Below the pieces are notes generated by a model, which did not search any database, had not been told where the DNA came from, and saw nothing but the letters and a program-made list of their open reading frames with translations. Positions 1,339 to 64,000 of a stretch of DNA of 64,000 bases are shown piece by piece. Positions within the stretch are counted from its first letter, which is position 1. The number at the start of each line of letters is the position of its first letter. Both the position numbers and the translations under genes were made by a program. The DNA is taken from assembly GCA_007376535.1 (NCBI GenBank), contig VMGK01000005.1, forward strand, positions 2,085 through 66,084, in the 5' to 3' direction. Source of the DNA: Candidatus Berkelbacteria bacterium Licking1014_7. GTDB taxonomy: Bacteria > Patescibacteriota > UBA1384 > GWA2-35-9 > CG2-30-39-44.

Positions 1339-2775
1339 ATGAAAAATTTCAACAAAAAACTCATTTTGTTCATTCTGGCGCTTTTTGTGTTGTCAACCGT
1401 TGGCTTCGGCGTCCAGCAAATTTACGCTTCGTTTTTGCGCGTTTCAAATTTGAATAAAGGTTTAGTCGGGCAGTGGGATTTGTCAAAAGAGAGTATGAAG
1501 TCGGCAACTGTTTTTGGGGACAGAACCCCTTACGGAAACAACGGCACTTCGGCAAACACTCCCACCCTTACCACTGACCAAAAAGGTCAGGCGAACAAGG
1601 CTTTGAGCTTTAATGGGACGAGTGATTATGTGGGAACTGGGACGAAAGTGTTATCTTCTTTCACTGCCATTACTGTAAGTGCTTGGGTTAAGTTTAATAC
1701 AACCGCAAATTATGACGGTTGGGTTAATCAGTGGGGGTCAGGCGTCTATAATGGATATGCTCATAGGATTTCAGATTCAGCCCCATATAAACAATACTTT
1801 GAGGTAAGTATAAACGATGAGAATCATGCTATTGGCGCTACGACTTTATCTACAGGAACTTGGTATCATCTTGTCGGGACGTGGACTAGCGGAGATAATG
1901 TTAGGGTTTATCTTAATGGAACATTAGATGGTACAAGCGCAACTGTGAAGACAGGAACTATTACGCCAAACAAAAATTTTGGAATAGGTTTCCTGCAATG
2001 GAGTGGAGCGAACCCTGCGAACTATCACAACGGCTCCATTAACGATGTGCGTATATACAATCGGGCGTTGACCCAAACCGAAATCACCCAACTTTACAAT
2101 CAATACGCTCCCAAACTCCAAGTCAACTCTTTAAGCAAAGGACTTGTCGGGCAGTGGAAACTCTCGCAGGCAAGCAAAAAAGGAACATTATACGGCGACT
2201 CCACCCCTTATTCCAACGACGGAACACCAGTAGGCACAACCCCCACCACCGACAGGCACGGACAAAGCAATATGGCTTTAAGTTTTAATGGGACGAGTGA
2301 TTGGGTGGATTTAGGAAATTTTTTAACGAATTGGCAACCACAAAGTATTTATACATTATCAGTTTGGTTTAAAACTACACTATCAGGTACAAACCAAGCA
2401 GTATTTGGTAATTTACAAAGTGGAGCACATGGCTATATTATTAGGATGCAAAATGAATCTATTTCTTATACTGTCTATGGTAGTGGAGTCAACGGAGTAT
2501 CTGCTTCAGCAAACTGGGTTAATATCCCAGATTCTAATTGGAATCATCTAGTCGTAATTGGAAATAATAAGGTTTTTAGTTTTTATCTAAATGGAAATCT
2601 CGTTCCAATAACTTCAAATAATTTAGTAGATGCTTCTTATACAGTGGGTGCTACACAAAGCACTAGAATAGGAGATGCATGGGTTTTTAAATTTACCGGC
2701 TCCATCTCCGATGTCCGCATTTACAATCGGGCGTTGAGCGCCGCTGAAATTTTGCAGTTGTATAATTTGTACTAA
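1339..2775 (+). CDS. Secreted protein with two LamG-like (concanavalin A-like lectin, Laminin_G_3) domains
   Basis: Signal peptide MKNFNKKLILFILALFVLSTVGFGVQQIYA. Two repeats of LVGQW.LS ... ALSFNGTSD.V ... DVRIYNRAL..EI.QLYN. Confidence 0.7.
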   Translation: MKNFNKKLILFILALFVLSTVGFGVQQIYASFLRVSNLNKGLVGQWDLSKESMKSATVFGDRTPYGNNGTSANTPTLTTDQKGQANKALSFNGTSDYVGTGTKVLSSFTAITVSAWVKFNTTANYDGWVNQWGSGVYNGYAHRISDSAPYKQYFEVSINDENHAIGATTLSTGTWYHLVGTWTSGDNVRVYLNGTLDGTSATVKTGTITPNKNFGIGFLQWSGANPANYHNGSINDVRIYNRALTQTEITQLYNQYAPKLQVNSLSKGLVGQWKLSQASKKGTLYGDSTPYSNDGTPVGTTPTTDRHGQSNMALSFNGTSDWVDLGNFLTNWQPQSIYTLSVWFKTTLSGTNQAVFGNLQSGAHGYIIRMQNESISYTVYGSGVNGVSASANWVNIPDSNWNHLVVIGNNKVFSFYLNGNLVPITSNNLVDASYTVGATQSTRIGDAWVFKFTGSISDVRIYNRALSAAEILQLYNLY

Positions 2776-2801
2776 TCCTCATCCTTTCACCTAACCCAAT
2801 T

Positions 2802-2840
2802 TTACGACACGGAGTGTCGTAAATCGTATTTTCATTTTTT
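2802..2840 (+). terminator. Putative rho-independent terminator of the LamG gene
   Basis: Perfect hairpin TTACGACAC-GGA-GTGTCGTAA followed by a T-rich tract. Confidence 0.5.
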
Positions 2841-2857
2841 AACGAGGCTCCATCTCC

Positions 2858-2895
2858 TTGACCCGTTAGTAGTGTTCCGCACTACTTTACGGGTC
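2858..2895 (+). repeat. 38-bp palindromic mini-insertion (CCCGTtAGTAGTG-TTCCG-CACTACTttACGGG core)
   Basis: Near-perfect inverted repeat sitting exactly between codons of the LamG remnant. Removing it restores the reading frame. Confidence 0.5.
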
Positions 2896-2911
2896 GATGT
2901 CCGCATCTACA

Positions 2912-3205
2912 CCCTGTGAAATTTGTAAATTTTTGAAGATAAGATGAAATTTTATTATACTTATATCCTTAAAAGTATAAAAGACAATAAATTGTATACT
3001 GGTTCAACAAAAAATTTACAAGAACGATTTGAGCAACATTGTAAGGGAAAAGTTTTTTCAACTAAGCATCGCAGACCATTAGAATTGATATACTATGAAG
3101 CTTGCTTAAATGAAAATGATGCTCGTCGCAGAGAAAGAGTATTCAAATCTTACAGAGGTAAAATGTTTATAAAAAGAAGGCTCAAATCGTATTTCACAGG
3201 GTAAA
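2912..3205 (+). mobile_element. 294-bp GIY-YIG nuclease cassette bounded by 11-bp perfect inverted repeats CCCTGTGAAAT / ATTTCACAGGG
   Basis: Inverted repeats at 2912-2922 and 3191-3201. The segment length is a multiple of 3 and removing it restores the LamG remnant frame precisely. Confidence 0.55.
2944..3204 (+). CDS. GIY-YIG domain nuclease (UPF0213/YhbQ-like small stand-alone GIY-YIG protein)
   Basis: YTYILKS...KLYTGSTKNLQERFEQH...RRPLELIYYE...RRRERVFKSYRG matches the GIY-YIG motifs (GIY, YIG, Arg and Glu core residues). Confidence 0.75.
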   Translation: MKFYYTYILKSIKDNKLYTGSTKNLQERFEQHCKGKVFSTKHRRPLELIYYEACLNENDARRRERVFKSYRGKMFIKRRLKSYFTG

Positions 3206-3316
3206 ATCGCGCCCTCATCGCCGCCGAAGTCCAACAACTCTACAATTCCTACTAATCCCATTATTCTCTTAAACTTTTATACTCTTACACTTTGAAACTT
3301 TACCCTTGTATACTAT

Positions 3317-3413
3317 GAACCCATTGCAAATCTCTCCAATCTACTACAATATGCCACATTTGGCTACAAAATACTCATCGTTCGTCATCGTCCGCCTTGG
3401 CGGATGCTTCCTC
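3317..3413 (+). mobile_element. MITE copy, 5' half only (terminal repeat GAACCCATTGCAAA), abutting and truncating the four-helix-bundle gene
   Basis: 97 bp nearly identical to 21725-21821 and 24893-24988. Confidence 0.6.
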
Positions 3414-3696
3414 TTCCGTCTCAGTGATGAGCAATCTCGCCGAGGGTTTTGAGCGCGGAACGCGCGAAGATCAAATTTATTTTTACTATATCGCCAAAGC
3501 ATCAGCCGGTGAAGTTCGTTGTCAGCTTTACATCGCGTATGACCAGAATTTCATTACAAAACAAGAATTAGACGATAACCTTACTCTTTGCAAAAAAACT
3601 TCCGCCACAATTTACCGCTTCATTGAGAGTGTAAAAGTTTCAGAGTATAAGGGTTTAAAGTTCAGAAAACCGATTAGAATTTTGGAAAAATTATGA
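3397..3696 (+). CDS. Four-helix-bundle protein (23S rRNA intervening-sequence protein family), N-terminally truncated. The first codons derive from the MITE
   Basis: SNLAEGFERGTREDQIYFYYIAKASAGEVRCQLYIA fits the IVS four-helix-bundle consensus. The usual N-terminal half is missing. Confidence 0.5.
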   Translation: MADASSSVSVMSNLAEGFERGTREDQIYFYYIAKASAGEVRCQLYIAYDQNFITKQELDDNLTLCKKTSATIYRFIESVKVSEYKGLKFRKPIRILEKL

Positions 3697-3796
3697 CAAA
3701 CCCAAATTACGGCACTTAATTCCTACCGAATATCGTGATAAGATATTAAAGAAAGGTAAAAACTCTTAAACAGGAAAAGGGGAAGGAGAGATAGAT

Positions 3797-6637
3797 CTAC
3801 TTGGTCTTGAAATTGTAAATAGAACTGGTGGCGGAGTTGGCGCTGCTGTCTTGCGAAACGATCTTAAAATAATATACGGTGGCGCTATTGAGATTGGCAA
3901 GCGTCAAAGAGTGGTTAGTAAATCCAGTTGTTTCTGTGACGGTTTTGGCATTAAGCGTGGTATTAATCAGTCCGTATTGGATATAACTTTGGCTAGGTTT
4001 GTCTGTTGTAAAACTAATTATGGCGGAGTTGGCAGTGGCTGAAACCAAGATATTGGAAATTTTAGGACCACTAGTATCAGGAGATACCAAAAATTTTATT
4101 TGTTTGTAAGCGGACGCCCCATTTTTATCAAAAGCAAAAGCGGTTAAAGTATGTTCTCCGACTGATAATCCATTCACATTGTAGGCGAGAGAGTAGGGGC
4201 TTGATGTGGCTTTGCCTATTTCAATATTATCAATTGAAAACGCCACTTCCCTGATTTCAAAATGCGCAGACGCAGATGCGGAAAAAACGGTTTCGCCTGT
4301 GGTCGTAGAATTTTCAGTCGGCGCAATTATTTCCATCACCGGCAATTTGTCTAACGAATTATACATATCGTCTTTTTCAGTCGGCGGCTGGTTGTCCATT
4401 CCTCGTTCAGCCGCCCACGCCAAAACCGGTCCCTCCCAGTTGCTGTTTTGCGGTTTTTCCGAGTGAATTTCTGTGTATAATTTTTCCTCAATTACTTCTT
4501 TAGGGGTAAATTCAGTGGCTAATTTACCATTTAATTTATTGATTTTAACCCGAATATGAATGTCGTCTTTTTTATCTGGCGCCTGCCAAGAGGTAAAAAT
4601 GTCCTTGATAATTTCCGGTGAATCAGCGGTAGGAAGTTTGTTGGATAATTTGTCAACTTCTATTTCGCGAATGCCCGACGGCTGATCAAAGCCCTTATTT
4701 TCTTTAGACAGCAGAAAACTTTTCATAAAAGCATTCCAAATCGGCGCGGCCACCACTGATCCGTCCGCGCCTTTTTTCATTCCGTCATTATTAGTATTTC
4801 CCACCCAGACAGCGGTTGAAATTTGCGGGGTATAACCCACAGTCCAGGCATCGTGAAACTCTTGAGTGGTGCCTGTCTTGACTGCCACTGTCTTGCCCGG
4901 AATGCTTAAATTATTGGTAAATCCAAAGACAGCGCCGCGGGCGTGATTGTCTGATAAAATATTGTTGATTTGGTAAGCGATTTGCGGATCAAGCACTGGT
5001 TTTGTTTCAAGATTTTCTGTCTTAAATTCTTCAAGTATTTTTCCGTTGTCGTCCTCGACTTTTAGTATGCCGGTGAGGGGCGCTTTTTTTCCTCCATTGG
5101 CAAAGACGCTAAAGGCGCCTGCCATTTCAATCGGTTTGACTTCGCCGCCGCCTAACACCAGAGAAAGTCCGTATCTGTCGGGTTGGGTTAAAGTGGTAAT
5201 TCCCAAATCCGCAGCGGTTTCCAGCGCTTTTTTAACGCCGACTAACCCCAATGTTTTGACTGCGGGAATGTTCAGAGAATTAGCCAGCGCCAAGCGCATT
5301 GAGACCGGACCGCGCTTGGAGCCGTCATAATTGTTGGGTACATAACCGCCGCCAAAATCAGTCGTAAGGTCAAAAAGAGTAAAAGCTGGGTTGTATTTAT
5401 CTTTGAAAGCAGTGGCGTAGACGATGGGCTTAAAAGACGAGCCCGGTTGGCGATTAGAAGTGGTGACATTTACCTGCCCATCAATGTCATCGTTAAAATA
5501 ATCGCGCGAGCCCACCATTGCCAGCACTTGTCCAGTGCTGGGGTCAATGGCGACCAGAGCGGCATTGTTGGCGCCATAGCGGTCTAATTTTTTACTGCCG
5601 GCTTCAATTGCGTCTAACGCTTTTTTTTGCGTATCAATATCTAATGTGGTGGTGACTTTCAGCCCGCCTTCTTCAACCATTTTTTCTCCATATTTTTCAG
5701 CCAGATATTCACGAATATAAAAAACAAAATGAGGAGCGATTAATGACTCGGACAGGGGGGTAAAGGTGATTTTGGCTTGCCGGGCTTTTTCCGCTTCATC
5801 TTTGGTGATATAGCCCAATTTTGCCATTTTTTCTAAAACCAGATCTTTTCGTTTGAGCAGTTTGTCTTTGTTAGCGCCATAAGGCGAGTAAAAAGTGGGC
5901 GCTTGCGGAAGCGCGGCAAGAGTGGCTGATTCTTCAAGTGTTAGATTTTTGGCGGGCTTGCCAAAATATTTACGGGACGCGGCTTCAATCCCATAAGCGG
6001 TTGAGCCATAAGGAATTTCATTTAAGTACATTTCTAAAATTTTGTCTTTGGAGTACATCATTTCCAATTCTAAAGACAGGATGAGTTCTTTAATTTTGCG
6101 CGAATAGGTTTTTTTCGGATTCAGAAGCGCGTTTTTGACATATTGTTGGGTAATGGTGGAGCCGCCTTGGGTAAAGCGCGATTTGCCAGTTAAGTTGTAA
6201 TAAATGGCGCGAAAAACGCCGGAAAAATCTAATCCGCGATGCTGATAAAAATCTTGGTCTTCAATGCTAACCGCAGCTTTTTTAACATAGTCGGGAATTT
6301 GGTCGGACGGAATAATCATCCGTTGTTTTTCGCCAGAAATAGCGTATAAAAGTTCGCCGTTTCGGTCAAGTATTTGGGTGGACTGCGCAGATTTTAGGGT
6401 TTTAAGTTTGGAAATGGCTGGCAGATCTTTGGAATACCAGACGAAAAGAACAACAATTGTCACAAAAAATCCCAGCGCCACTTTGCCGAAAAGTTTTAAC
6501 CAGCCCCTGAATCCTAATTTTTTGAGTTTGCGCCAGATCCTGTGGGGATTTCTAAGGTGGTTGATATGGCGCTTTATTCCGTGAGAAATTCCTAATGGGT
6601 TGAAAAGTCGTTTAATAAATTTCATGATAAAATTCAT
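3797..6637 (-). CDS. mrcA: Class A penicillin-binding protein (glycosyltransferase GT51 plus transpeptidase) with a C-terminal fibronectin-III/Ig-like extension
   Basis: EDQDFYQHRGLD and GGSTITQQ (GT51); SGSSFKP, SLN and KTGTT (transpeptidase). N-terminal TM anchor. Confidence 0.9.
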   Translation of the reverse strand: MNFIMKFIKRLFNPLGISHGIKRHINHLRNPHRIWRKLKKLGFRGWLKLFGKVALGFFVTIVVLFVWYSKDLPAISKLKTLKSAQSTQILDRNGELLYAISGEKQRMIIPSDQIPDYVKKAAVSIEDQDFYQHRGLDFSGVFRAIYYNLTGKSRFTQGGSTITQQYVKNALLNPKKTYSRKIKELILSLELEMMYSKDKILEMYLNEIPYGSTAYGIEAASRKYFGKPAKNLTLEESATLAALPQAPTFYSPYGANKDKLLKRKDLVLEKMAKLGYITKDEAEKARQAKITFTPLSESLIAPHFVFYIREYLAEKYGEKMVEEGGLKVTTTLDIDTQKKALDAIEAGSKKLDRYGANNAALVAIDPSTGQVLAMVGSRDYFNDDIDGQVNVTTSNRQPGSSFKPIVYATAFKDKYNPAFTLFDLTTDFGGGYVPNNYDGSKRGPVSMRLALANSLNIPAVKTLGLVGVKKALETAADLGITTLTQPDRYGLSLVLGGGEVKPIEMAGAFSVFANGGKKAPLTGILKVEDDNGKILEEFKTENLETKPVLDPQIAYQINNILSDNHARGAVFGFTNNLSIPGKTVAVKTGTTQEFHDAWTVGYTPQISTAVWVGNTNNDGMKKGADGSVVAAPIWNAFMKSFLLSKENKGFDQPSGIREIEVDKLSNKLPTADSPEIIKDIFTSWQAPDKKDDIHIRVKINKLNGKLATEFTPKEVIEEKLYTEIHSEKPQNSNWEGPVLAWAAERGMDNQPPTEKDDMYNSLDKLPVMEIIAPTENSTTTGETVFSASASAHFEIREVAFSIDNIEIGKATSSPYSLAYNVNGLSVGEHTLTAFAFDKNGASAYKQIKFLVSPDTSGPKISNILVSATANSAIISFTTDKPSQSYIQYGLINTTLNAKTVTETTGFTNHSLTLANLNSATVYYFKIVSQDSSANSATSSIYNFKTK

Positions 6638-8927: not shown

Positions 8928-9104
8928 CTCCGTCAGCTGACGGACTTCATCCTTAATTCTTATTTAATTTTGTAATAAAAAAAATATGCCAAGCAGTGGT
9001 GGGTCAAAAACCCCGGATTTTAATCCATGCGTAGTTGATTGTATGTCTTTGTTTGTTGTAGGCATATTAATCATTGTAGGGATATTAAAAATAATTTTAT
9101 AGAG

Positions 9105-10703
9105 ATGGATTTAGTTAAAAAAGTTATAGATGGAGCAGTTTTAAGATTGTACAAGTTGCGATCGCAAAAATATTCCTTGGATTATAAAGAGCAATTTGGC
9201 GATTTGTCTACTAATCTTGCGTTTGTTTTGTCGTCGCAAATTAAAGATGCGCCACAAAAAATTGCGATCGCAATTAAACAAAAAATTGAAAAAGAAAAAT
9301 TTTTTGAAAAAGTTGAAATCGCTAACGCTGGATTTTTAAATTTCACTTTATCAGGCGACACGATAATGAAAATGCTTGAAAGCGAAAATTTTAATCATTC
9401 AAAAAAAAGCGATCGCAAAAAAATACAAATTGAATTTATTAGCGCTAATCCAACCGGACCGCTTACTCTTGGCAACGCGCGCAATGCTTTTACTGGCGAC
9501 GCGATCGCAAAAATTTTACGTTGGTCAGGACAAGATGTTCAGACCGAATATTATGTCAATGATATGGGGAATCAGATTGAGACGCTGGGGGAATCAGTAA
9601 TAAATTCAAAACTCAAAACGCAAATGTCAAAACCACCCCTAAAAAATCAAAAATTTTATGTTGGAGAATATATTGAAGAAATAGGCAAAAGGATTAACGG
9701 GAAAAATGTGCAACAAATAGGGGAGCGGGGAGCAAAAATTATTTTACAGGATTATATAAAACCGCTGATTAAAAAATTAAAAATACATTTTGATCGTTGG
9801 CAAAGTGAAAAAGCATTACATCAAAGGTACGACATTGAACAAGAGGTTGAAAAATTGCGATCGCAAAAATTTATCCAAGAAAAAGAAGGCGCGCTTTGGT
9901 TTTTGACTAAAAAATTTGGCGACGATAAAGATCGGGTGCTCAAGAAAAAAAATGGGCAGTGGACATATTTGGCGTCTGATCTTTTGTATTTGATTGACAG
10001 AAAAAAGAGGGGATTTGATAAAATTATCATTCTTTTAGGCGCTGATCATTCTGGTTATATCAAACGAATTTTGGCTTTGGGGCAGTCGTTGGGTTTTAAA
10101 AAAGATCAAATAAAAATTTTAATTTGTCAGTTGGCGCGGATTAAAAAAGGCGAGAAAAGTTTGAGAATGAGCAAACGCGCTGGCAATGTGATATACTTAG
10201 ACGAGTTAGTTGGTAAAGTCGGGCTGGATGCGAGCCGATATTTTTTCTTGGAAAAAAATCCTAACACTCATCTTGATTTTGACGGGCAAAAAGCGCTGAA
10301 AAGGGATTTGACCAATCCGGTTTATTATATTCAATATGGATATGTTAGAGCGCAAAGTATTTTGCGCAAATGTCAAATTTCAAATATCCCTGCCCCGAAG
10401 CAAGCGGGGAAATATCAAACAAATTTCAAATCCCAAATTCTAAATTCTCAAGAAAAGCGGTTGGCTTTGAAAATTTTAGCCTTACGCCCTGCCCTGTCCG
10501 ACATATCCCAGACTTTAGAGATTTACCGGTTGCCTCATTTGGCGCTGGATTTGACGCGCGCGTTTAGTAATTTTTACGAAAAAGAAAGAGTGATTGATGG
10601 CGAAACAGTAAATCCGCTGAATTTGTTGCTTACTCAAAAATTTTATACATCTATTGATTTGCTTTTAGACATGATGGGAATTTCCAAACCGGAAAAAATG
10701 TAA
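9105..10703 (+). CDS. argS: Arginyl-tRNA synthetase
   Basis: SANPTGPLTLGNARNAFTGDAIAKIL (HIGH region), MSKRAGN, C-terminal anticodon-binding region. Start placed at MDLVKK (9105) rather than the ORF-track 9039. Confidence 0.9.
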   Translation: MDLVKKVIDGAVLRLYKLRSQKYSLDYKEQFGDLSTNLAFVLSSQIKDAPQKIAIAIKQKIEKEKFFEKVEIANAGFLNFTLSGDTIMKMLESENFNHSKKSDRKKIQIEFISANPTGPLTLGNARNAFTGDAIAKILRWSGQDVQTEYYVNDMGNQIETLGESVINSKLKTQMSKPPLKNQKFYVGEYIEEIGKRINGKNVQQIGERGAKIILQDYIKPLIKKLKIHFDRWQSEKALHQRYDIEQEVEKLRSQKFIQEKEGALWFLTKKFGDDKDRVLKKKNGQWTYLASDLLYLIDRKKRGFDKIIILLGADHSGYIKRILALGQSLGFKKDQIKILICQLARIKKGEKSLRMSKRAGNVIYLDELVGKVGLDASRYFFLEKNPNTHLDFDGQKALKRDLTNPVYYIQYGYVRAQSILRKCQISNIPAPKQAGKYQTNFKSQILNSQEKRLALKILALRPALSDISQTLEIYRLPHLALDLTRAFSNFYEKERVIDGETVNPLNLLLTQKFYTSIDLLLDMMGISKPEKM

Positions 10704-13111: not shown

Positions 13112-15382
13112 TCACAAATCCACCTCATAGCCATTTCCATCGGCTAAAATCCAGACCTTTTTACCTTTGTGATCCACTTGGAAACAAGTGGGTTTTTTGA
13201 TTGCGGGAGGAAAAAGATATTGTTTTAAGTAATTGCCGTCTTTGTCAAATTCTAAAACGCGCGCTTTGGTTTGGTCTAAAATATAAAGTGAAGAAATGGA
13301 TTCAGCTGTGTAGATATCAATCGGATTGGATAAATCATCAAACGTTTTGGGTAGATTTTTAAGTCGAAAATCAGTGGCCGCGCCCTTGCTAATTTTCAGG
13401 ACTTTATTTGGTAAAAGCGCGTAAATAGAATTGTCAATCGTAAGCGCGACTGCTTTTGACATCTGGTTTGCCAGCGCCGAGCCAGTGTAGGAGACCGGGT
13501 CTTGATAATTATTTTCGTTTTTGTTAAATTTCCAGATTTTCGCATCTTTTGCTGAAAACGCGTAAATATTGTCGGCAAAAATATCAAAATCAATCAGCGC
13601 GCCAGTTTTATTTTGAGGGAGATTAAGAGCGATTAGCCGTTCGTCCTCAGCATTGAAATTGTAAATTTCTCCGGCCTGAGTTAAAAGGTAAAAATGGCGA
13701 TCGTCAAATTTGATAAGGTCTTGCCATTTGCCAGCAATGGATGGAATTTCTTGCTTTTTACCAGATAAGATATTGATTTTTATAATTTTTTCATTTTCCA
13801 AAAGAAAGGCAGAGCCCTGAAAGGTGAACATTTTTTCACCTTTTAAGTCCGTGGCAAAGGGCGTCAAATTGAAATATCTTTTTGTCTGAGTGATTGAGTC
13901 GGCTTGATTGCTGGCTTGGCTGATAATTTTTTCCGCTTCGGTTTTGTACTCAGAGTTTTGAATTTTTTGCGCCAAATTTATCGCGTTTTCAAAAAGTTCA
14001 GTTGCAGTTTGCTTATCAGATAAAATTAAAGCGGATTTTCCTTCATCTAATTTTTTTTGCGCTTGGGATAGTGTCTCGGACTTTTGTTGGCTGGCAAGTT
14101 TTTGCGCTTGTTTTTTTCTTTGCACGCTGATAGAAACGATTAAAACGAAAATCAGTGTTACGGCGCATATCACAATCATTAACGGTCGTTTTTTGCTGGA
14201 TGAGTAATTTTTTCTAAAAAAATACCAAGCATTGTCGATTTTGATAATTACTTTTTTAATTGTTTGGTTGGCGGTTCTGACAATTTTTTTTGCGCTTGAT
14301 GTATGCTCATTTCTGTAATCATTGATGGTATAAATCGAGCGACCGATAAATGAATCGTTTTTGGTTGACGCGATTTCTGCCCCGTCCTTTTTAATTTTAA
14401 CTAAATTATCTCCAATAAATTTTTTGGCGCCGCCGCCGGTTTTTTGAATGATGGGTTTGGCTTTTTGAAAATATTCGCGCGATAATTGCCGAGAACGGTC
14501 TGACGCGGTTTTTAGAAATTTTTTACTTTGGGGAAGGTAGCGCGTTTTTGTCTTATTGATGCTGGCTTTGAGGTACTGATGGGTGTTTTGTCCGGTTTTC
14601 TTAACCCAGGGCAAAATATATTTTTTAGAAAATTTTATTGCTTGGCTCAACGCTGAGGCGGATTGTTTATCAACCGTCAGTTGAATATCTTGCACGGCTT
14701 GGTTTTCTACCGGGATTTCGACATTAAGAGTAAAAAAAGCGATCGCTTTGTCGCGCGTTTTTTTGAAGAAAGTAAAAATGTTTTCGCCTGCTTCAATAAA
14801 GTTTTGATTTGCGAAAAATTGCTTGACGATTTGCGAGGATAAGTGATTAAGCGCTTGAGAGTTGGCAAAAATTAATAAGTCGTTTGCATCAATGGAACCA
14901 GATGTGATATTAGAAAAGGTTTTAAGCGGATGGGGTCCGATAATTTGAATTTTTGAGTCAACAATTTCTGAAATTTTGTCATTGCGAATCAGCCAGGTCT
15001 TGATTTTTCCCGAGGTAGCAAGGTGTACTTGGTTTTGGATAGATAAGCAAAATATTGCGTTGAGGTTGCCGATCCAGCTGGTTTCGCCGTTTTGGCTGAT
15101 ATGCGCCAATGTTTCGTTAACTGACTTGAGCGCTTGTTCAAAATTCTGCAAATCAGAGGTGGATTCGCCAGAATAATAGGCGCGTTTTAGGGTATTAAGT
15201 ATGGTCTGTCCGATTTGGCGGTGGATTGAAGTGGCTTGCAAAATTTCTAACAAAACATAGATTTTGCCCATTTCCTGATGAATTTTGTCAGGCGATTCTA
15301 AAATTTGAGCCGTGATAAAACGCCCGGGAATTTGTCCAGAGTGTAAAATTTTGAGCGAGTTGAGGGTGAGGTTTTTGAGCAT
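13112..15382 (-). CDS. Large hypothetical membrane-anchored protein (single mid-protein TM, coiled coil, C-terminal β-propeller-like repeats)
   Basis: TM segment RPLMIVICAVTLIFVLIVSISV. Repetitive β-strand-rich C-terminus. No confident family. Confidence 0.45.
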   Translation of the reverse strand: MLKNLTLNSLKILHSGQIPGRFITAQILESPDKIHQEMGKIYVLLEILQATSIHRQIGQTILNTLKRAYYSGESTSDLQNFEQALKSVNETLAHISQNGETSWIGNLNAIFCLSIQNQVHLATSGKIKTWLIRNDKISEIVDSKIQIIGPHPLKTFSNITSGSIDANDLLIFANSQALNHLSSQIVKQFFANQNFIEAGENIFTFFKKTRDKAIAFFTLNVEIPVENQAVQDIQLTVDKQSASALSQAIKFSKKYILPWVKKTGQNTHQYLKASINKTKTRYLPQSKKFLKTASDRSRQLSREYFQKAKPIIQKTGGGAKKFIGDNLVKIKKDGAEIASTKNDSFIGRSIYTINDYRNEHTSSAKKIVRTANQTIKKVIIKIDNAWYFFRKNYSSSKKRPLMIVICAVTLIFVLIVSISVQRKKQAQKLASQQKSETLSQAQKKLDEGKSALILSDKQTATELFENAINLAQKIQNSEYKTEAEKIISQASNQADSITQTKRYFNLTPFATDLKGEKMFTFQGSAFLLENEKIIKINILSGKKQEIPSIAGKWQDLIKFDDRHFYLLTQAGEIYNFNAEDERLIALNLPQNKTGALIDFDIFADNIYAFSAKDAKIWKFNKNENNYQDPVSYTGSALANQMSKAVALTIDNSIYALLPNKVLKISKGAATDFRLKNLPKTFDDLSNPIDIYTAESISSLYILDQTKARVLEFDKDGNYLKQYLFPPAIKKPTCFQVDHKGKKVWILADGNGYEVDL

Positions 15383-15478
15383 AATAATCAAATCAAAAGT
15401 TATAAGTCCCCGAAGACAATGTGCTATCACTTGGCTTCAATCCTACGGATTGTAAAATTTTTGTAGCATTCATAGTTT

Positions 15479-16066
15479 TTATTTCTCCCAAATTATATGG
15501 CAGTTGATATTGTGTTTCTCATAATCTTTTAATACATCGGCGCAAAAATCCATCAACTCCTTATTTTTCTCGCTTTTGGCCAATTCATATAAACGAATAA
15601 ACATCTTTTTACCAGTTTCGGTCTGTTTGAGGTGTTTTTTAATAAAGTTGTGTTGAGCACATAAGGTCTGTCCATTTTCAACTATTGCTTTACCGCCTTC
15701 ATATCTTGATTTAATGTGATCAACTTGTAACTCAACTCCATCCTCTCTGCCTCGTCCACACAGGACACATTTATAGTCATCTCGTTTTAAGATAAATTCT
15801 TTTTGTTCAGGTGTAAAATCCTCTAAAATTCGTTGATTGACCATTTCGGGATCATATCTATATATTCCCTTATTTACTTTAACCAAAAAACCAACTTCGT
15901 GAAGATTTCTAATTGATCGCCAGGTATCTCTCGGTTTTTTATTATAAAGCCGCATGTACTTTGCTTCAACCCAATCAACAACTGGACCGTGTGGCATATC
16001 CTCTTTTGGATGTGCCTTGAAGTATTCAATAAGCAGGTCTCGTATTGATTTGTTTTTCTTTTTCAT
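15479..16066 (-). CDS. HNH endonuclease (probable restriction endonuclease partner of the adjacent methyltransferase)
   Basis: CVLCGRG...ELQVDHIKSRYEGG...NGQTLCAQHN (HNH with zinc-finger cysteines). Start at MKKKNK. Confidence 0.7.
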   Translation of the reverse strand: MKKKNKSIRDLLIEYFKAHPKEDMPHGPVVDWVEAKYMRLYNKKPRDTWRSIRNLHEVGFLVKVNKGIYRYDPEMVNQRILEDFTPEQKEFILKRDDYKCVLCGRGREDGVELQVDHIKSRYEGGKAIVENGQTLCAQHNFIKKHLKQTETGKKMFIRLYELAKSEKNKELMDFCADVLKDYEKHNINCHIIWEK

Positions 16067-16074
16067 AGTTATTA

Positions 16075-16914
16075 TTAAGTTAATAAATTTGGTTGATCTA
16101 TTTTTGCTTCTACCCGTAATCGCCTGATTGCTAAATCGCAATATTCTTTGTCAATATCAACACCAATTCCTTTTCTGTTGTGCAAATATGAAGCAATAAG
16201 CGTTGTTCCGCTACCCAAAAATGGGTCCAAAACTGTATCACCAATAAAACTAAATAATTTTATACATCGTCTCGGCAATTCAACCGGAAATGGCGCAGGA
16301 TGTCCGCCCGCCCCCTTTTTACTTTGGCCGGAGAATGTCCAAACACCATTTGTCCAATCCATAAATTCCTGCTTTGTAATGTCATTTTTCCTACTCCCGC
16401 CAGTTTTTTTCCAGCTGTCTTTATATAAAACTAAAATCAATTCAACAGGGGCAATGACATAAGGAGCTGAGGCAGACATATATGAACCCCAAGCGGTGCG
16501 GCGAGAAATATTTCCCTCGTTCCAGATAATCGTTGAGTGATATTTCCAGCCAATATCTTTTGCGATTTTTGTAATATCAGCGCCGACTGATTTTTGGCCA
16601 CCTTTATTTTTATCAAGAGGAATATTTAGCAAAAATCGTCCTTCCTTTTTTGCTAAATCAAAACATTTCTTAATCCATTTTTTGGTAAATTCTAAATAGT
16701 CTTCGTAAGTCAAATTGTCAGCGTGGGAATTGTAATGAATGTCAACATTATAAGGCGGTGAAGTAATAATTAGATCAACTGAATTTCCGGGTATGGCTGT
16801 AATCTTCAAAATATCGGCTTTGAAAATAGAAATTCCGTCTTTTTCAAAATATGGTTTTTGAGATTTCATCTCATCAATATTGCTAACTTGTTTTTCCGCC
16901 ATTATATTTTGCAT
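16075..16914 (-). CDS. β-class N4-cytosine/N6-adenine DNA methyltransferase
   Basis: Motif IV IITSPPYN near the N-terminus and motif I DPFLGSGTT near the C-terminus (N6_N4_Mtase order). Confidence 0.85.
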   Translation of the reverse strand: MQNIMAEKQVSNIDEMKSQKPYFEKDGISIFKADILKITAIPGNSVDLIITSPPYNVDIHYNSHADNLTYEDYLEFTKKWIKKCFDLAKKEGRFLLNIPLDKNKGGQKSVGADITKIAKDIGWKYHSTIIWNEGNISRRTAWGSYMSASAPYVIAPVELILVLYKDSWKKTGGSRKNDITKQEFMDWTNGVWTFSGQSKKGAGGHPAPFPVELPRRCIKLFSFIGDTVLDPFLGSGTTLIASYLHNRKGIGVDIDKEYCDLAIRRLRVEAKIDQPNLLT

Positions 16915-17204
16915 AAAATTTTTGTGATAAGCACAGCAACAGGGTTTATATCAATAGCAATTGATGGTCGTCCCATTACTTTTGATTCAACAAGCGTTGT
17001 GCCGCAACCACCAAATGGATCAACAATAGAATCACCCTCTCGCGTATATTTTTCCGCTAAGCGAGAGACAATTTGCGGAATAAACTTTGCGGGGTAGCGA
17101 TGATAGCCGTGCGTGATATACGTCGTGTCCTTCCTTGTTTTATCGGAAAAAGACCACGAATAATCAATTTTTGTCTTTGCGAGTAATGTTGTTATTTGTC
17201 TCAT
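16902..17204 (-). pseudogene. C-terminal fragment of an N6_N4 DNA methyltransferase (AdoMet-binding half only)
   Basis: HRYPAKFIPQIV...DSIVDPFGGCGTT...IAIDINP corresponds to the last ~100 aa of the N6_N4_Mtase domain. No DPPY motif. Confidence 0.5.
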
Positions 17205-17300
17205 AGCTTTTTTTTGTTAATTCCTCAATTTTCAAAATGTCTGAATTGGTCGCCTTTCGACTTGGCTCAAGGCGACTCTGAGATTGTCGTCTGGTCGTAA

Positions 17301-18720: not shown

Positions 18721-18722
18721 AT

Positions 18723-24012: not shown

Positions 24013-24084
<72 letters not shown>

Positions 24085-48088: not shown

Positions 48089-48354
48089 TCAGAATTGTTA
48101 TTGCGAACAGATTCATCTTAATGTCATTTATGTTTAGTATATATTAAGTTTTTATGTGGATTGTGGCGTCTATTCGTCTAACTGATTAAAATTAAAATCT
48201 TTAACATTTTAGTGCGATCGCATCAGTTTGTTAAAGATTCCAATAAATTTAATTGAGGAATAGCGCGCAAAAAAATAGCATGCCTTGACATTTGTCAGGG
48301 TTTTATAGTATATTGTTGATGATTTAATAAAAGCACATTGACAAGGAGGTAGAC

Positions 48355-49980: not shown

Positions 49981-52461
49981 ATGATTTTTATAATAATTTT
50001 CGGGATATTGATCTTGGTCTTTGGTATAGGACTGATAATTTTTAGTTTGCAAAAAGAAGCGGCGCGCAAAAAACGGATTTTATCAACAGTTACTTTGCAA
50101 ATTACTGTTCCCAAAGAATCAACCCGCCGCGACGATCAAGACACTAGCAACGAACCAAAGGATTTTCGCGAGGCGATCGCGCCGACCGATCAATTTTTTT
50201 CTTCGCTTTCCTCGCTTTTTAACCGCGACTTTCGCCGCCAAATACTATCTGATCAAGATTATTTATCATTTGAAATTGTCTCGTATAAAAATGAAATTTC
50301 TTTTTACATTGCCTGCCCTAAGGATTTGATGAGTTTGGTTGAAAAACAGGTCAATTCGTATTATCCTTATGCTAATATTGAGCGGGTGCGCGGTCATAAT
50401 ATTTTTGCCATTGGCAATGGCAAGGTTTCAGCCAGTAACATTAAACTAGTCAAAAGATTTATTTTCCCAATAAAAACCTATCGCTATTTGGATTCTGATC
50501 CATTGAACAATTTGACTAACGCGCTTTCTAAAATGGGACAAAACGCGTCCGGCGCAATTCAGTTTTTGATTAAACCGATTTCAAATAACTGGCGGATGGC
50601 GCCAACGTCTGCCGCCAAGCAAGTGATGGAAGGAAAAAATACTTATATGTATTCAAAATGGTGGCAAAAGGCGCTGAGTAATTTTTGGGAAGGAACTTCA
50701 AAAAGCGCTTCGCGCGCCGCCACACTGCCCGGTCAAACCATGCAAACCGACAGCCAAGGCAATCAGATGTATCGCCACACCCCGGCGCAGGAAGAATTGA
50801 TGAAAGCGTTTAATGAAAAAGCCGCTAAGCCCGGTTTTGCGGTTGAAGCGCGGGTGGTGGCAGTTGCGCAGGATGAACAATCTGTTAAAATGCTTAAAAA
50901 TAATATTGTGAGCGCCTTTGCTCAATTTAACGCGCCGGCGTGGAATAGTTTCAGAACCTCTTCGGCTGAGCAAAAGCAAATTATTTTGGACTATATTACT
51001 CGTAATTTTAATAAGGGAAATGTGCTCAATTCTGAGGAGGTGGCGTCGCTTTGGCATTTGCCAAATAAATTTATCCAGACGCCGAATATCAAATGGTTGC
51101 AATCGCGCACTTTGCCCGCGCCCACCAATTTGCCAGAACAGGGTGTAGTGATAGGAAAAAGCGTTTATCGCGGCGAGGAAAAGTTGATTCGTTTTAAGGA
51201 CGATGATCGACGCCGTCATTTGTTTATGATTGGTAAAACCGGTGTTGGTAAAACCACTTTATTTGAAAATATGATTATGCAAGACATTTCTCAGGGCAAA
51301 GGGGTTTGTTTTGTTGATCCATTGGGCGATGCGATTGAATCAATTCTGCAAAAAATTCCCACTCATCGCGCCCGCGATGTGATTGTTTTTGATCCGTCTG
51401 ACACTGATTATCCGCTGGGACTTAATTTGCTTAATTGGGAAAAACCAGAAGAAAAGGATTTTTTAGTGTCTGAATGGTTGGAAATTTTCTACAAACTTTT
51501 TGATCCGGGTCGCACTGGTATAGTGGGACCGCAGTTTGAGCATTGGGGGAGAAATGCCGCGCTTTCAGTTATGAGTTTGCCTGAAGGCGGGACTTTGATT
51601 GATATTCCCCGCATGTTCACTGATGATGATTTTCGGGACAGAGTGATTGCGAATGTAAAAGATCCGGTCGTTCTGGCTTTCTGGCAAAAGCAATTAGTGA
51701 AAACCGCTGATTTTCATAAGTCAGAAATGTTTAATTATTTTATTTCTAAATTTGGACGGTTTATGACCAATGATTTGATGCGTAATATTATCGGTCAGGC
51801 GCGATCTACGTTTAATTTTCGACAGGTGATGGATGAGGGGAAGATTTTACTGATTAATTTGTCAAAGGGAAAAATCGGCGAGATGAATTCCAATCTTTTA
51901 GGTATGATTTTAGTGTCAAAAATTCAGGCGGGGGCATTCTCGCGCGCAGACATTAGCGAAGAAAACCGACGGGATTTTTACCTTTATGTTGACGAGTTTC
52001 AAAATTTTACCACTGATACATTTGCGACAATTTTGTCTGAAGCCAGAAAATACCGCTTAAATTTGAATATTACCAATCAGTACATTGCTCAATTAACAGA
52101 GAAAATTCGCGACGCGGTGATTGGCAATGCCGGCACATTGGTGGTCTATCGGATTGGCGCGGCTGACGGTGAATTTATGTCAAAAGAATTTCCCGGGGCA
52201 ACGATTGACGATATGGTTAATTTAGATAGATTTAAGACATATGTTAAATTGTTGATTGATTTGACGCCTTCAAAACCGTTTTCTATGCTGGGCATAAAAA
52301 CGAATTATCCTTCAAATCCACAAATGTCAGAGTGGATAAAACAGAATAGCCGGGCGCTTCACAGCCGGGCAAAGACGCAAGTTGAAAAAGAAATCGGCGG
52401 ACGCGGCGGCTTGACTGCGCCGCCGGCGCCCGAGCCAACCGAGGCGCTTCGCCAAACGTAG
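49981..52461 (+). CDS. Membrane-anchored VirD4/TraG-like (type IV coupling-protein-like, FtsK/HerA superfamily) P-loop ATPase, paralog 1
   Basis: N-terminal TM; Walker A FMIGKTGVGKTT; Walker B FYLYVDEFQNF; ARKYRLNL and TNQYIAQL (Arg-finger and sensor-like). Start could also be 49948. Confidence 0.65.
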   Translation: MIFIIIFGILILVFGIGLIIFSLQKEAARKKRILSTVTLQITVPKESTRRDDQDTSNEPKDFREAIAPTDQFFSSLSSLFNRDFRRQILSDQDYLSFEIVSYKNEISFYIACPKDLMSLVEKQVNSYYPYANIERVRGHNIFAIGNGKVSASNIKLVKRFIFPIKTYRYLDSDPLNNLTNALSKMGQNASGAIQFLIKPISNNWRMAPTSAAKQVMEGKNTYMYSKWWQKALSNFWEGTSKSASRAATLPGQTMQTDSQGNQMYRHTPAQEELMKAFNEKAAKPGFAVEARVVAVAQDEQSVKMLKNNIVSAFAQFNAPAWNSFRTSSAEQKQIILDYITRNFNKGNVLNSEEVASLWHLPNKFIQTPNIKWLQSRTLPAPTNLPEQGVVIGKSVYRGEEKLIRFKDDDRRRHLFMIGKTGVGKTTLFENMIMQDISQGKGVCFVDPLGDAIESILQKIPTHRARDVIVFDPSDTDYPLGLNLLNWEKPEEKDFLVSEWLEIFYKLFDPGRTGIVGPQFEHWGRNAALSVMSLPEGGTLIDIPRMFTDDDFRDRVIANVKDPVVLAFWQKQLVKTADFHKSEMFNYFISKFGRFMTNDLMRNIIGQARSTFNFRQVMDEGKILLINLSKGKIGEMNSNLLGMILVSKIQAGAFSRADISEENRRDFYLYVDEFQNFTTDTFATILSEARKYRLNLNITNQYIAQLTEKIRDAVIGNAGTLVVYRIGAADGEFMSKEFPGATIDDMVNLDRFKTYVKLLIDLTPSKPFSMLGIKTNYPSNPQMSEWIKQNSRALHSRAKTQVEKEIGGRGGLTAPPAPEPTEALRQT

Positions 52462-61719: not shown

Positions 61720-62847
61720 TTAAATCAATTTGTCTTTGTCGTTTTTGGACTCTTCTAACATTTCCAATCCTTTGATTTGCGGGAAATTCGGTCCAGCAAT
61801 GCCGGTAATGCCACCATAGATATTAAACAATGATTTGAACATTTTATTGAGCTGAACTTCTCTTCGCTTCCATTGTGTTTCAAAAGCCACTTTTTCTTTG
61901 ATGATTTGCTCTTGCATTCCAAAATACGATTCTGCGATCGCTTCCATTTGCTGAGTGAACTCGTGGCTGTTCAGATATTCATATAATTCTTCGGCAGTGC
62001 TGGCACTTTGAGCTGAAATTGCCTTTTGTTTGGCGCCTTCCAGCAAGATATTACGCAAAAATGTTGCTAAGGCAATAAAATATTTTGGCGTGGTCACCCA
62101 AACTTTGTTAATAGGGATAATTTCCTTTGGAGCGTCTTTGGGTAAAACCATACTGACTAGCCCTGCGAACCTTGCTTTTTCCACGCGCTGATCGGAGCGT
62201 AATTTGTCAATCCATTTATTTTCCCAGTTTTTAGTCCGTTTGTTTTCCCATATAATTTTTCCAGCTATATTGCCCATTGGGGTTTTAACCAATTGAACCA
62301 AATCCGCGCCCCGTACGCCCTTTTTTACTTCTAAAATTTCGTCTTGGGGGAAAACGTTTCTCAGTGAATTTTCCAAATCCAATTCCAAAATTTCGCCTTG
62401 GGCTTGCTCAGAACCTTGTTCTGCTTTCCGTTTAAGTTCTTCGGCTACTTTTTTAAGATCAGCAATTTGTTTGTCTTTTTCTAAATTTTTTAGTCGATTT
62501 TCTTCGTTAATTTTTTGCGCTAAATTTTCTTTGGCTTTTTCTATTTCGTCAAAAATTTGTTTTTGACTTTTCAGTTCTCTTTCTTCGTCTTTTTCTCGTA
62601 GTAAGCGCAAACTTTTATTCAATTCTAAAAGTTGATTGCCAAGTTCACGGTTTCGCTTTTTTAATTCTTCTGCCTCATTTTCTTTATCTTTAATTTTCAA
62701 TTCCTGTTCCGCTAAAATTTTCTCGCGCAATTTTTGTTCAAAATTTTTTTCGATTTCCTGTTTTTGCTCCTCGCGAATTTGATCCGTAAGCGCTTCGCTC
62801 AGTTCAATTTCTTTTTGGCAATAGGGGCATTTGATAGTATTTATCAT
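61720..62847 (-). CDS. DUF2130-like coiled-coil protein with N-terminal CxxC zinc ribbon
   Basis: CPYC, a long EQK-rich coiled coil, and a conserved C-terminal globular domain. Confidence 0.5.
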   Translation of the reverse strand: MINTIKCPYCQKEIELSEALTDQIREEQKQEIEKNFEQKLREKILAEQELKIKDKENEAEELKKRNRELGNQLLELNKSLRLLREKDEERELKSQKQIFDEIEKAKENLAQKINEENRLKNLEKDKQIADLKKVAEELKRKAEQGSEQAQGEILELDLENSLRNVFPQDEILEVKKGVRGADLVQLVKTPMGNIAGKIIWENKRTKNWENKWIDKLRSDQRVEKARFAGLVSMVLPKDAPKEIIPINKVWVTTPKYFIALATFLRNILLEGAKQKAISAQSASTAEELYEYLNSHEFTQQMEAIAESYFGMQEQIIKEKVAFETQWKRREVQLNKMFKSLFNIYGGITGIAGPNFPQIKGLEMLEESKNDKDKLI

Positions 62848-63049: not shown

Positions 63050-64000
63050 TTAGTTCTCAAAAAATGCGCACCACTGACAAGGTTTGCCCGGGGTTTCGCG
63101 ATGATCAAATTTTAGCGCTTGGATATTTTGCCAGACATCAATAATTTGTTTTTTGAAATCCTTCATTTCATTTTTGTCAAACGAAAAAATATGTTTGGCA
63201 AAACGATAATTTTCGTCCAAAAATTCAATTGCGGTCTCCCCTATTTTCCATTTGGTAAAAAAACGGTGATCCAATTCTCCCAAAAGCCAATAAAATTGCA
63301 GTTGCAATAAATAGTTGCGATCGCGTTTTTTTGTCAACCCCATTATTTCATTCCTGCTTTTGGCTTGCCCGGTTTTATAGTCAATCACCCGGACTAAATT
63401 TTTTCTTTTATCCAACCATTCAATTTTGTCAATTTTGCCAGTTAACGGTATACTGCCAAAGCGCACATTGTGAGGTCTGAAATTAAATTCAGTCCAAAGC
63501 GGTTTTTGAAAATTGTTTTTATTCCAAGACGGCGAATACCTCGGAGCTTGCTCCGAGTCCCGCCCCTTGGCGGGATCAAATGGCGGAACAAACGAATACC
63601 CCGCAGCTTGCTGCGTGGGTCGTTTATATTTTTCAAAATAATTGCTTAGCAATTTTTTACCCGCTTGTAAAAATTCAATCTTCTCTTTTTTTGATAAAAT
63701 TTCTTTTTCAATCGCCCGATCAAAATATTTTATCAAATCGTTTGCTTCGGGCAAGTAATTATTTTTTATATAATCGCGAAAAAATTCTTCTAATGCTTTG
63801 TGTATGGCTGTTCCATAACTTTGCGCCGCTGACTTGATTTGCGGCAGGCGAATAATGTTTTTTAGCAAATAGTCGCGCGGACATTTTAGATAAGTGGTAA
63901 AACCGGTCGGGCTCAGCGGTTGATTTTTGACAATATTTTTTAGCCAAGTTTTTTCCGCGCGCGGAAAATTAATTATCGCGGTGGCGCTTAATTCATCTAC
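63050..64000 (-). CDS. PD-(D/E)xK (RecB/AddB/Cas4-like) nuclease domain protein; the 5' end lies outside the window
   Basis: TYLKCPRDY ... IDYKTGQ ... QLQFY ... CQWC. The frame is open to the window edge. Confidence 0.5.
   Translation of the reverse strand, partial: VDELSATAIINFPRAEKTWLKNIVKNQPLSPTGFTTYLKCPRDYLLKNIIRLPQIKSAAQSYGTAIHKALEEFFRDYIKNNYLPEANDLIKYFDRAIEKEILSKKEKIEFLQAGKKLLSNYFEKYKRPTQQAAGYSFVPPFDPAKGRDSEQAPRYSPSWNKNNFQKPLWTEFNFRPHNVRFGSIPLTGKIDKIEWLDKRKNLVRVIDYKTGQAKSRNEIMGLTKKRDRNYLLQLQFYWLLGELDHRFFTKWKIGETAIEFLDENYRFAKHIFSFDKNEMKDFKKQIIDVWQNIQALKFDHRETPGKPCQWCAFFEN

Follow-up and report, generated by a model that had tools for sequence, protein, structure and literature searches.

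In cyanobacteria, the CGATCG core of the highly iterated palindrome HIP1 is methylated by methyltransferases of the C5-cytosine (PF00145) type. For some 30 years HIP1 has remained a puzzle, with transformation experiments appearing only recently, and its abundance has been described as restricted to cyanobacteria (PMC5861425). In AT-rich cyanobacteria the octamer is extended as tGCGATCGCa, and HIP1 is methylated by dedicated orphan enzymes (PMC4390886). Methylated HIP1 boosts natural transformation up to >100-fold in Synechococcus PCC 7002, and unmethylated homologous HIP1 acts there in a Chi-like manner (bioRxiv 10.1101/2024.09.10.611283); HIP1 abundance also correlates with pilus and competence genes in cyanobacteria (bioRxiv 10.64898/2026.06.24.733823). 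Here we describe the same octamer, the 8-bp palindrome GCGATCGC, in a 64,000-nucleotide stretch of Candidatus Berkelbacteria bacterium Licking1014_7 (contig VMGK01000005.1; hereafter, the window), an uncultivated candidate phyla radiation (CPR) bacterium from groundwater, where its distinctive signal is a clustering in particular genes, above all in the arginyl-tRNA synthetase gene argS.

Closely comparable elements include the DNA uptake sequences of Neisseria (DUS) and the uptake signal sequences of Pasteurellaceae (USS), which are biased to genome-maintenance genes, highly conserved and seldom found in accessory genes (PMC2397512). For an uptake signal that is palindromic and depends on methylation, C. 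jejuni provides a precedent (discussed in bioRxiv 10.1101/2024.09.10.611283). Cultivated CPR bacteria (Saccharibacteria) are naturally competent (PMC10633639), and we found no paper in the searchable literature that links HIP1 or uptake sequences to CPR bacteria.

The window has a G+C content of 39% and a CPR-like gene content, including a type IV pilus cluster, DUF8128/TrwB-like ATPases and small genes. Its ArgS is 100% identical to the protein of Licking1014_7, and over 7.4 kb, argS included, the window is 100% identical to an assembly in ENA. Searches with SecD and RecJ agreed with this assignment, the nearest relatives were all Patescibacteria, and the host is outside the Cyanobacteria. 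The relatives compared below came from scans, and include a lineage from Crystal Geyser metagenomes (loci L002, L034 and L035; ArgS 51% identical to that of the window), a Hainich groundwater lineage (L033 and L195; 50%), and L066, whose argS is truncated by the contig end (64%). The recJ locus of a Licking1014 Berkelbacterium (L193, contig k139_160813) was taken from the ENA assembly that also holds the window sequence, and it probably derives from the same organism, because it shares with the window the sample, a G+C content of 39.1%, the intergenic repeat ACGGGGCAGGCA and a tetranucleotide correlation of 0.98. A further contig, L198, extends the window to the right (12,281 nt overlap, 0 mismatches).

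An exact search revealed 10 copies of GCGATCGC (hereafter, HIP1 sites) in the window, at 9158, 9264, 9409, 9501, 9857, 14739, 48214, 50173, 61934 and 63317. Dinucleotide-preserving shuffles predict 0.83 (n = 100; maximum 3), and base composition alone predicts 0.34. The count of about 10, with less than one expected, had been given in a first-pass annotation of this DNA and holds, as do eight of its ten positions; the other two were displaced, 9157 by 1 (9158) and 14749 by 10 (14739). Nine copies lie in coding sequence, against 1.17 expected when synonymous codons are shuffled within each gene, which preserves protein sequences and codon usage (0 of 2000 shuffles reached nine). In general, G+C-rich 8-mers exceed the composition-only expectation, and GGCGCGCC and CGCGCGCG have five copies each against 0.14. 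Taken alone, the window thus shows a striking cluster in one gene on a modest background and no uniform excess.

The cluster occupies 707 bp at the 5' end of argS, where five copies are found and 0.18 are expected from the synonymous-codon shuffles. The gene and its sites are as follows.

9105..10703, plus strand: argS, arginyl-tRNA synthetase, 532 aa, with the Pfam domains Arg_tRNA_synt_N, tRNA-synt_1d and DALR_1
9158..9165: HIP1 site 1, TTGCGATCGCAAAAA, frame 3 (KLRSQK), lineage-specific, in a 9-codon stretch absent from relatives
9264..9271: HIP1 site 2, TTGCGATCGCAATTA, frame 1 (IAIAIK), orthologous position kept in L035 and L033
9409..9416: HIP1 site 3, AGCGATCGCAAAAAAA, frame 2 (KSDRKK), lineage-specific, coinciding with a 2-codon insertion
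9501..9508: HIP1 site 4, ACGCGATCGCAAAAA, frame 1 (GDAIAKIL), kept in L035 and L033
9857..9864: HIP1 site 5, TTGCGATCGCAAAAA, frame 3 (KLRSQK), kept in L035, L033 and L066

Because all three reading frames are used, the argS copies are not a peptide repeat, and the synonymous-codon shuffles likewise rule this out. A conserved peptide repeat was what the first-pass annotation had named as able to explain the cluster away; with that removed, the signal lies at the DNA (or RNA) level. It had placed the five copies within 710 bp, in line with the span found here, and had seen LRSQK encoded twice, which is correct, the remaining three sites encoding AIA, SDR and AIA in the other two frames. Its description of the copies as always TTGCGATCGCAAAAA or AGCGATCGCAAAAA fits 9158, 9857 and 9409, the last reading AGCGATCGCAAAAA in context, and fails at 9264 and 9501. 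Site 2 is part of a 16-bp perfect palindrome, AATTGCGATCGCAATT (9260-9275).

The three shared argS sites are constrained as DNA. L035 and L033 each carry three argS HIP1 sites, exactly at the positions of 9264, 9501 and 9857, and L066 has the equivalent of 9857, the sole one of these positions within its truncated gene. When the three full-length genes are aligned codon by codon, the codons under the shared sites are identical in 10 of 10 cases, compared with 73 of 212 (34%) at the other columns with an invariant residue, and at that rate the probability of 10 of 10 is ~2e-5. The longest words common to the three genes are all HIP1-based (13-15 nt), with all others at ≤11 nt. The codons immediately flanking the shared motifs differ between lineages, and a recent transfer of argS between lineages is ruled out on this ground. 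More distant CPR ArgS proteins have TLS, TLA or VIA at the position of site 4 (AIA in this clade), and their loci contain 0-1 HIP1 copies. One recJ site (KAIAK) is also orthologous in three lineages (L193, L035 and the Hainich lineage), and the motif is conserved between genomes beyond the codon conservation seen elsewhere.

Sites in the relatives almost always read as the 12-bp palindrome TTGCGATCGCAA; with 5 copies in 21 kb, it is repeated more often in L035 than any other 12-mer. The T...A or TT...AA extension occurs at all sites of L035 (6/6) and L033 (3/3) and at the single sites of L066 and L068, and at 4 of the 10 window sites. Lineage-specific sites are accompanied by residue changes, for example ALA to AIA in SecF of L068, ALG to AIA in the DUF8128 gene, and NPHNM to ESDRF and VALAF to SAIAF in RecJ, and some arise with small insertions. 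An 8-12-bp palindromic word is under purifying selection at synonymous sites and has been repeatedly created at the protein's expense. Two one-mismatch variants were also seen, GCGATAGC at 150 of L066, 6 bp upstream of the conserved argS site, and GCAATCGC in the Licking radA, at the position of an ancestral site; these may be decaying or nascent sites.

Outside argS, the window contains the following sites.

14739..14746: HIP1 site (KAIAFF) in a conserved 772-aa protein with no assigned function (gene 13112-15430, minus strand); not kept in relatives
48214..48221: sole intergenic HIP1 site, downstream of tgt, at the centre of an 11-bp inverted repeat, AATCTTTAACA ... TGTTAAAGATT
50173..50180: HIP1 site (EAIAPT) in a DUF8128/TrwB-like coupling-type ATPase (gene 49948-52461, plus strand)
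61934..61941: HIP1 site (EAIAES) in a DUF2130 protein (gene 61720-62847, minus strand)
63050..64000, minus strand: 3' part of an AddA-like helicase-nuclease gene, complete in L198 at 1059-4142
63317..63324: HIP1 site (KRDRNY) in the AddA-like gene, within its C-terminal PD-(D/E)XK nuclease part

At the DUF8128 site L068 reads EALGPA, so the site arrived with residue changes. The region around the intergenic site (48195-48245) lies ~75 bp upstream of a good sigma-70-like promoter, TTGACA...TATAGT (~48287-48312), which precedes two small coiled-coil open reading frames (ORFs; 48355-48579 and 48551-48808). Rfam and tRNA scans gave nothing at the HIP1 sites. A LexA or other promoter operator is unlikely, with 17 of the 18 sites known from this organism inside genes.

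The genes that carry several sites are, besides argS, recombination genes. The window ORF 63050-63868 is the end of a 1027-aa UvrD-helicase/PDDEXK_1 (AddA-like) gene, as L198 shows, and this gene has three HIP1 sites, two of them beyond the window end, against 0.41 expected from synonymous shuffles (P = 0.003). In L193, six sites fall in the 4.4 kb of ftsQ-recJ-radA (0.48 expected from synonymous shuffles), with one in the ftsQ-like gene, four in recJ and one in radA. Together the sampled DNA of the Licking organism holds 18 sites in 73.7 kb (0.24 per kb), an observed/expected ratio of 46 by composition and ~19 by dinucleotide shuffles, and 13 of the 18 lie in four genes.

argS: 5 sites; recJ: 4; AddA-like gene: 3; radA: 1; ftsQ-like gene: 1
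DUF2130 gene: 1 site; DUF8128 gene: 1; 772-aa gene: 1; intergenic: 1

Recombination genes account for 8.4% of the sampled DNA and hold eight of the 13 sites outside argS (binomial P = 2e-6, for a category chosen post hoc and with L193 a biased sample). On the unbiased contig alone, the AddA-like gene has three of the seven sites outside argS (P = 0.003). No sites lie in the tRNA-Pro island, the restriction-modification locus or the toxin-antitoxin locus of the window; enrichment in core and genome-maintenance genes together with absence from recently acquired DNA is what is seen for DUS and USS, here with small numbers and a post hoc category. The three sites of L035 outside argS are in ddl, recJ and radA, just upstream of argS within the segment ddl-ftsQ-recJ-radA-PBP-tyrS-argS, and the next 10.8 kb has none; the Hainich lineage repeats this pattern. 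Most other genes lack the motif, and other loci, among them L067 and L194 from the same HIP1-poor lineage as L066, have few or no copies.

L067: 0 HIP1 copies in 16.6 kb
L068: 1 HIP1 copy in 14.8 kb
L194: 1 HIP1 copy in 14 kb
L070, a more distant Berkelbacterium: 0 HIP1 copies in 21 kb
L192, the part past the left end of the window: 0 HIP1 copies in 2.1 kb

Viral contigs scanned for TTGCGATCGCAAAA had one site per contig and offered no informative loci.

The evidence base, 18 sites and ~250 kb of related sequence, is best read as a DNA tag that resembles HIP1 or an uptake sequence and is connected with recombination or the uptake of DNA, a reading to which we give a probability of roughly 40%. 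GCGATCGC would be a cis-acting element selected at the DNA level within coding sequence, in any frame, and often extended, as observed, to a 10-12-bp palindrome, (T)TGCGATCGCA(A). It would most likely work as is now proposed for HIP1 in cyanobacteria and as DUS and USS do in their hosts. A dimeric protein would recognise the tag on double-stranded DNA, possibly once the CGATCG or GATC core has been methylated, and the efficiency of uptake or recombination would be higher for fragments that bear it. Old sites would then be kept and new ones made by selection or molecular drive, even at the cost of residue changes, with gain and retention preferentially in genome-maintenance genes. The protein recognition, the methylation and the effect on uptake or recombination are what we infer from the pattern of the sites.

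This reading is ranked first because the octamer is exactly HIP1 with the T...A extension of AT-rich cyanobacteria, because methylated HIP1 raises transformation and unmethylated homologous HIP1 is Chi-like in PCC 7002, and because HIP1 abundance tracks pilus and competence genes in cyanobacteria. It also ranks first because DUS and USS are likewise conserved, coding, rare in accessory DNA and enriched in genome-maintenance genes, and because the window has a complete type IV pilus cluster (PilN, PilO, PilB, PilT, PilC, PilD and pilins) while cultivated CPR bacteria are naturally competent. The first-pass annotation had offered a HIP1-like repair or recombination motif as one of its two options, and this one is favoured, the sites being concentrated in recJ, radA and the AddA-like gene in addition to argS.

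Several observations weigh against a HIP1-like or uptake-sequence-like tag. The density is low and patchy (0.24 per kb in the 73.7 kb), the relatives have ~2 sites in ~60 kb outside the hot genes, and without argS the window keeps five copies, the same number as the unrelated GC-rich words TGCCGGCA and TGGCGCCA, two of the 64 palindromic 8-mers that share its composition. The density and even spacing of DUS and USS are not found here (0.16-0.24 per kb): before L198 was added, 11 of 16 sites fell in 3.8 of 70.5 kb (clustering P = 4e-11), and local arrays this tight are not expected from uptake drive alone. The densest host gene, argS, is not a genome-maintenance gene. No PF00145 methyltransferase or other candidate reader was detected with Pfam among the 50 window ORFs ≥100 aa, and the sole hint of a DUS receptor is a sub-threshold ComP_DUS match in an 841-aa pilin at 38816-41341 (E = 4.9e-4; 21.4 bits, cut-off 27.3). 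Finally, L193 was chosen because the relative L035 already had a recJ site, which makes it a biased sample, and its assignment to the window organism is probable rather than proven.

The pilus cluster itself (29280-45062) starts with an 860-aa protein that has no family and a Gly-rich (GGC)n tract at ~29790-30130, followed by PilN and PilO, and further contains a PilB with an MshEN domain, PilT, PilC, several prepilins, PilD and a PilX_N protein. The 841-aa giant pilin-like protein also has a sub-threshold T2SSG match.

Compared with HIP1 of cyanobacteria, the Berkelbacteria sites share the octamer, the T...A extension of AT-rich genomes, the location in coding DNA in all frames, and a conservation of orthologous positions beyond codon conservation that was obtained with the same test as in Xu et al. 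2018 (PMC5861425). The observed/expected ratio of ~19-46 in 73.7 kb is inside the 15-300-fold range of that study. They differ in that the host is a CPR bacterium, the density is ≤0.24 per kb compared with up to ~3 per kb (1 per 350 nt), and the sites are tightly clustered in few genes whereas cyanobacterial HIP1 is quasi-periodic; moreover, no CGATCG C5-methyltransferase was seen in the window and close lineages have very few sites. The element was not filed as a plain member of HIP1 because its iteration over the whole genome is questionable and the host is outside the Cyanobacteria. It is a sparse, gene-clustered, HIP1-identical element in CPR bacteria.

With DUS, USS and the methylated RAATTY of Campylobacter the element shares a short word in coding sequence, maintained at the protein's expense and conserved between species, the rarity in islands, the enrichment in genome-maintenance genes (PMC2397512) and a host with type IV pilus genes. 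DUS and USS, in contrast, occur at ~1 per kb (thousands) and fairly evenly and are not palindromic, whereas the element is sparse, palindromic and arranged in tight local arrays, and the ComP_DUS match is below threshold. Chi, the recombination hotspot of RecBCD/AddAB, offers a further comparison: like Chi of E. coli, the element is an over-represented 8-mer at ~0.2 per kb, and an AddA-like helicase-nuclease is among the proteins of the host. Asymmetry, dependence on orientation and a lack of clustering set the known Chi sites apart. A Chi-like effect has been proposed for HIP1, and the effect of HIP1 in PCC 7002 survived deletion of addAB (bioRxiv 10.1101/2024.09.10.611283).

Palindromic sites of 12-16 bp with few copies per genome are known from parS/ParB, Noc-binding sites (NBS), SeqA GATC clusters and KorB operators. 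Sites of the parS type are often in genes and regionally clustered, with positions conserved between species. The Berkelbacteria sites share palindromy, low number, genic location, clustering and conserved positions with them, and could be arrayed targets of a lineage-specific homodimer that binds DNA and serves in architecture, segregation or sequestration, with a few tens of sites per genome, tolerated in coding sequence and locally clustered. The conserved unit is often a perfect palindrome of 10-16 bp (TTGCGATCGCAA, and AATTGCGATCGCAATT at site 2), its positions are kept while flanking codons drift, and the sites form extremely tight local clusters (5 within 0.7 kb, 4 within 1.3 kb, and the 11 of 16 noted above). 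The sites of L035 and of the Hainich lineage also all lie in one ancestrally contiguous segment, the one that runs from ddl to argS. In Licking1014_7, however, argS and the AddA-like gene are ~54 kb apart on one contig and recJ-radA is on a separate contig, giving at least two separate loci, and PBP and tyrS, which stand between the hot genes in the relatives, have no site in any lineage. GCGATCGC is unrelated to the 16-bp parS palindrome TGTTNCACGTGAAACA, the sole parS match in the window has 3 mismatches (chance level), and no parAB, dnaA, DnaA-box cluster or other sign of an origin or partner was found there. The bias to recombination genes is not a property of parS and would go unexplained, and the exact identity with HIP1 would be a coincidence of ~1 in 64-256. 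On balance, we regard such arrays as the main rival, though a rather unlikely one.

A more improbable alternative is that the word is only a methylation or restriction-modification target, an epigenetic mark regulating host genes through a CGATCG, GATC or 8-bp AsiSI-type enzyme. The motif contains both GATC and CGATCG, as the first-pass annotation had noted in suggesting that it may be the target of one of the methyltransferases or restriction-modification systems of the window, and two intact PF01555 methyltransferases are present in addition to fragments.

16075-16914: PF01555 methyltransferase, beta-class, SPPY motif (N4-cytosine type), in a lineage-specific island beside tRNA-Pro
25007-26011: PF01555 methyltransferase, beta-class, DPPY motif (N6-adenine type)

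Pfam, NCBIfam and PDB sequence searches gave only these classes for the window methyltransferases and no target. CGATCG is the most over-represented 6-bp palindrome, and GATC is the least avoided of the 4-bp palindromes that contain A or T without consisting of them only, and cyanobacterial HIP1 does have its dedicated orphan methyltransferases. CGATCG lacking the outer G and C is nonetheless not enriched in the window (6 against ~8 expected), and the conservation reaches 10-12 bp, past any known type II site. Restricted words are normally depleted with a cognate enzyme pair present, whereas HIP1 is enriched and no enzyme could be assigned to it. The island of the SPPY enzyme is absent from the syntenic stretch of L035 and L066, which keep HIP1 sites, and with no PF00145 hit in the window this leaves the link to the window methyltransferases and restriction-modification systems unsupported, although an enzyme encoded outside the window may methylate the motif. 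Promoter regulation is unlikely with 1 of 18 sites intergenic.

In the window together with L192 and L193, the observed/expected ratios of 4-bp palindromes under a Markov model are 0.14 for GGCC, 0.34 for TCGA and CTAG, 0.39 for CATG, 0.40 for ACGT, 0.41 for AGCT, 0.47 for GTAC and 0.69 for GATC, with GCGC and CCGG at expectation, which suggests long pressure from many restriction systems. The island (15479-18795) adjoins tRNA-Pro (18723-18795, minus strand) and contains an HNH endonuclease with an IscB-like HNH region, the SPPY methyltransferase, a Bro-N protein and fragments of two methyltransferase genes; an integrated mobile element or the remnant of a phage is the probable identity of the island. 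A 219-aa ORF without family match starts 3 bp after the DPPY methyltransferase (region 25007-26673), and from this arrangement the two may form a type II restriction-modification pair.

A role at the mRNA level, in which self-complementary copies would pair in helices of 12-14 bp and thereby govern how stable the argS, recJ and addA transcripts are or how they are translated, is very improbable. Nearly all sites are in transcribed coding sequence, and in the minimum-free-energy fold of the argS 5' region sites 2 and 5 are paired with each other, as are sites 3 and 4. Compared with shuffled sequences, 9060-9920 folds no better (z = -0.86; 3 of 20 shuffles as stable), RNA pairing requires complementarity and not palindromes, and genes with a single site (radA, ftsQ-like, DUF2130) would have no partner; one word in several unrelated genes rather suggests a common trans-acting reader. 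Chance or artefact, through CpG-rich codon usage (GCG being the commonest Ala codon), AIA-rich proteins or misassembly, is almost certainly wrong: the excess of GGCGCGCC and CGCGCGCG and the two-palindrome tie without argS fit it, but it is contradicted by the synonymous-codon shuffles of argS, ftsQ-recJ-radA and the AddA-like gene, the use of three reading frames, the 10 identical codons in three lineages assembled from different sites, and the agreement of the ENA assembly. The probabilities that we attach to these readings do not sum to one, and the remaining quarter or so belongs to mechanisms beyond those considered.

That a HIP1 system, consisting of the motif and its reader protein, exists outside cyanobacteria in a CPR clade, sparse and centred on recombination genes and argS, is a tentative proposal that we consider somewhat doubtful. 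If it is true, the few protein families that these tiny genomes have in common with HIP1-bearing cyanobacteria, and that their HIP1-poor sister lineages lack, would point to the HIP1 reader, and the gene bias would tie HIP1 function to recombination or transformation. Berkelbacteria, which are unrelated to cyanobacteria and have a very small genome, provide a second lineage with clear selection on this octamer, and they offer a comparative route to the motif-reading protein, with the location of the sites in recJ, radA, the AddA-like gene and argS as a hint at function. The element would also be the first candidate uptake or recombination sequence tag in CPR bacteria, pilus-bearing organisms that rely on imported DNA. 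Should it instead be a centromere-like array, it would be a new type of chromosomal landmark sequence. Either way, words of 13-15 nt that are kept in genes with ~50% identical proteins need an explanation.

Another repeated word of the window, GGGCAGGC/GCCTGCCC, has 21 copies, more than HIP1, which are mostly intergenic and read (T)TACGGGGCAGGCAAA(T). They include those at 1174, 6701, 7101, 7240, 8852, 8877, 18697, 23519, 31964, 33739, 33764, 46245, 46953, 49377, 55810, 55846 and 56458, and the word is also found in L193 at 123. Often a short GC-rich hairpin (cccgcc...ggcgg) directly precedes TACGGGGCAGGCAAA, with an AT-rich tract or tandem heptamers on its other side, and longer copies of GGGCAGGC (~70-140 bp) are at 1146-1267, 3346-3413, 21754-21891, 24921-24989, 33736-33815 and 46126-46196. 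By its layout this looks like a dispersed intergenic repeat family, either similar to repetitive extragenic palindromes (REP-like) or a promoter or terminator module.

The DUF8128/TrwB-like ATPase that carries a HIP1 site has a paralog in the window; the two (VirD4-type coupling ATPases, 49948-52461 and 53172-56096) are each preceded by a small ORF, an arrangement that is kept in L067, L068 and L070 and matches type IV secretion genes of CPR bacteria (PMC12102498). Overlapping ORFs for a DUF6922 protein and an AbiEii nucleotidyltransferase (28156-29051) correspond to a type IV toxin-antitoxin or abortive-infection module. A four-tRNA cluster (Thr, Tyr, Thr, Trp) is located at 23541-24627, and an Rfam L10 leader lies upstream of rplJ-rplL at 45287-45428. 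Between 61223 and 61672 the G+C content exceeds 58% in 200-bp windows, compared with a background of 39%, and this segment contains a 115-aa ORF without family match (61288-61635, minus strand).

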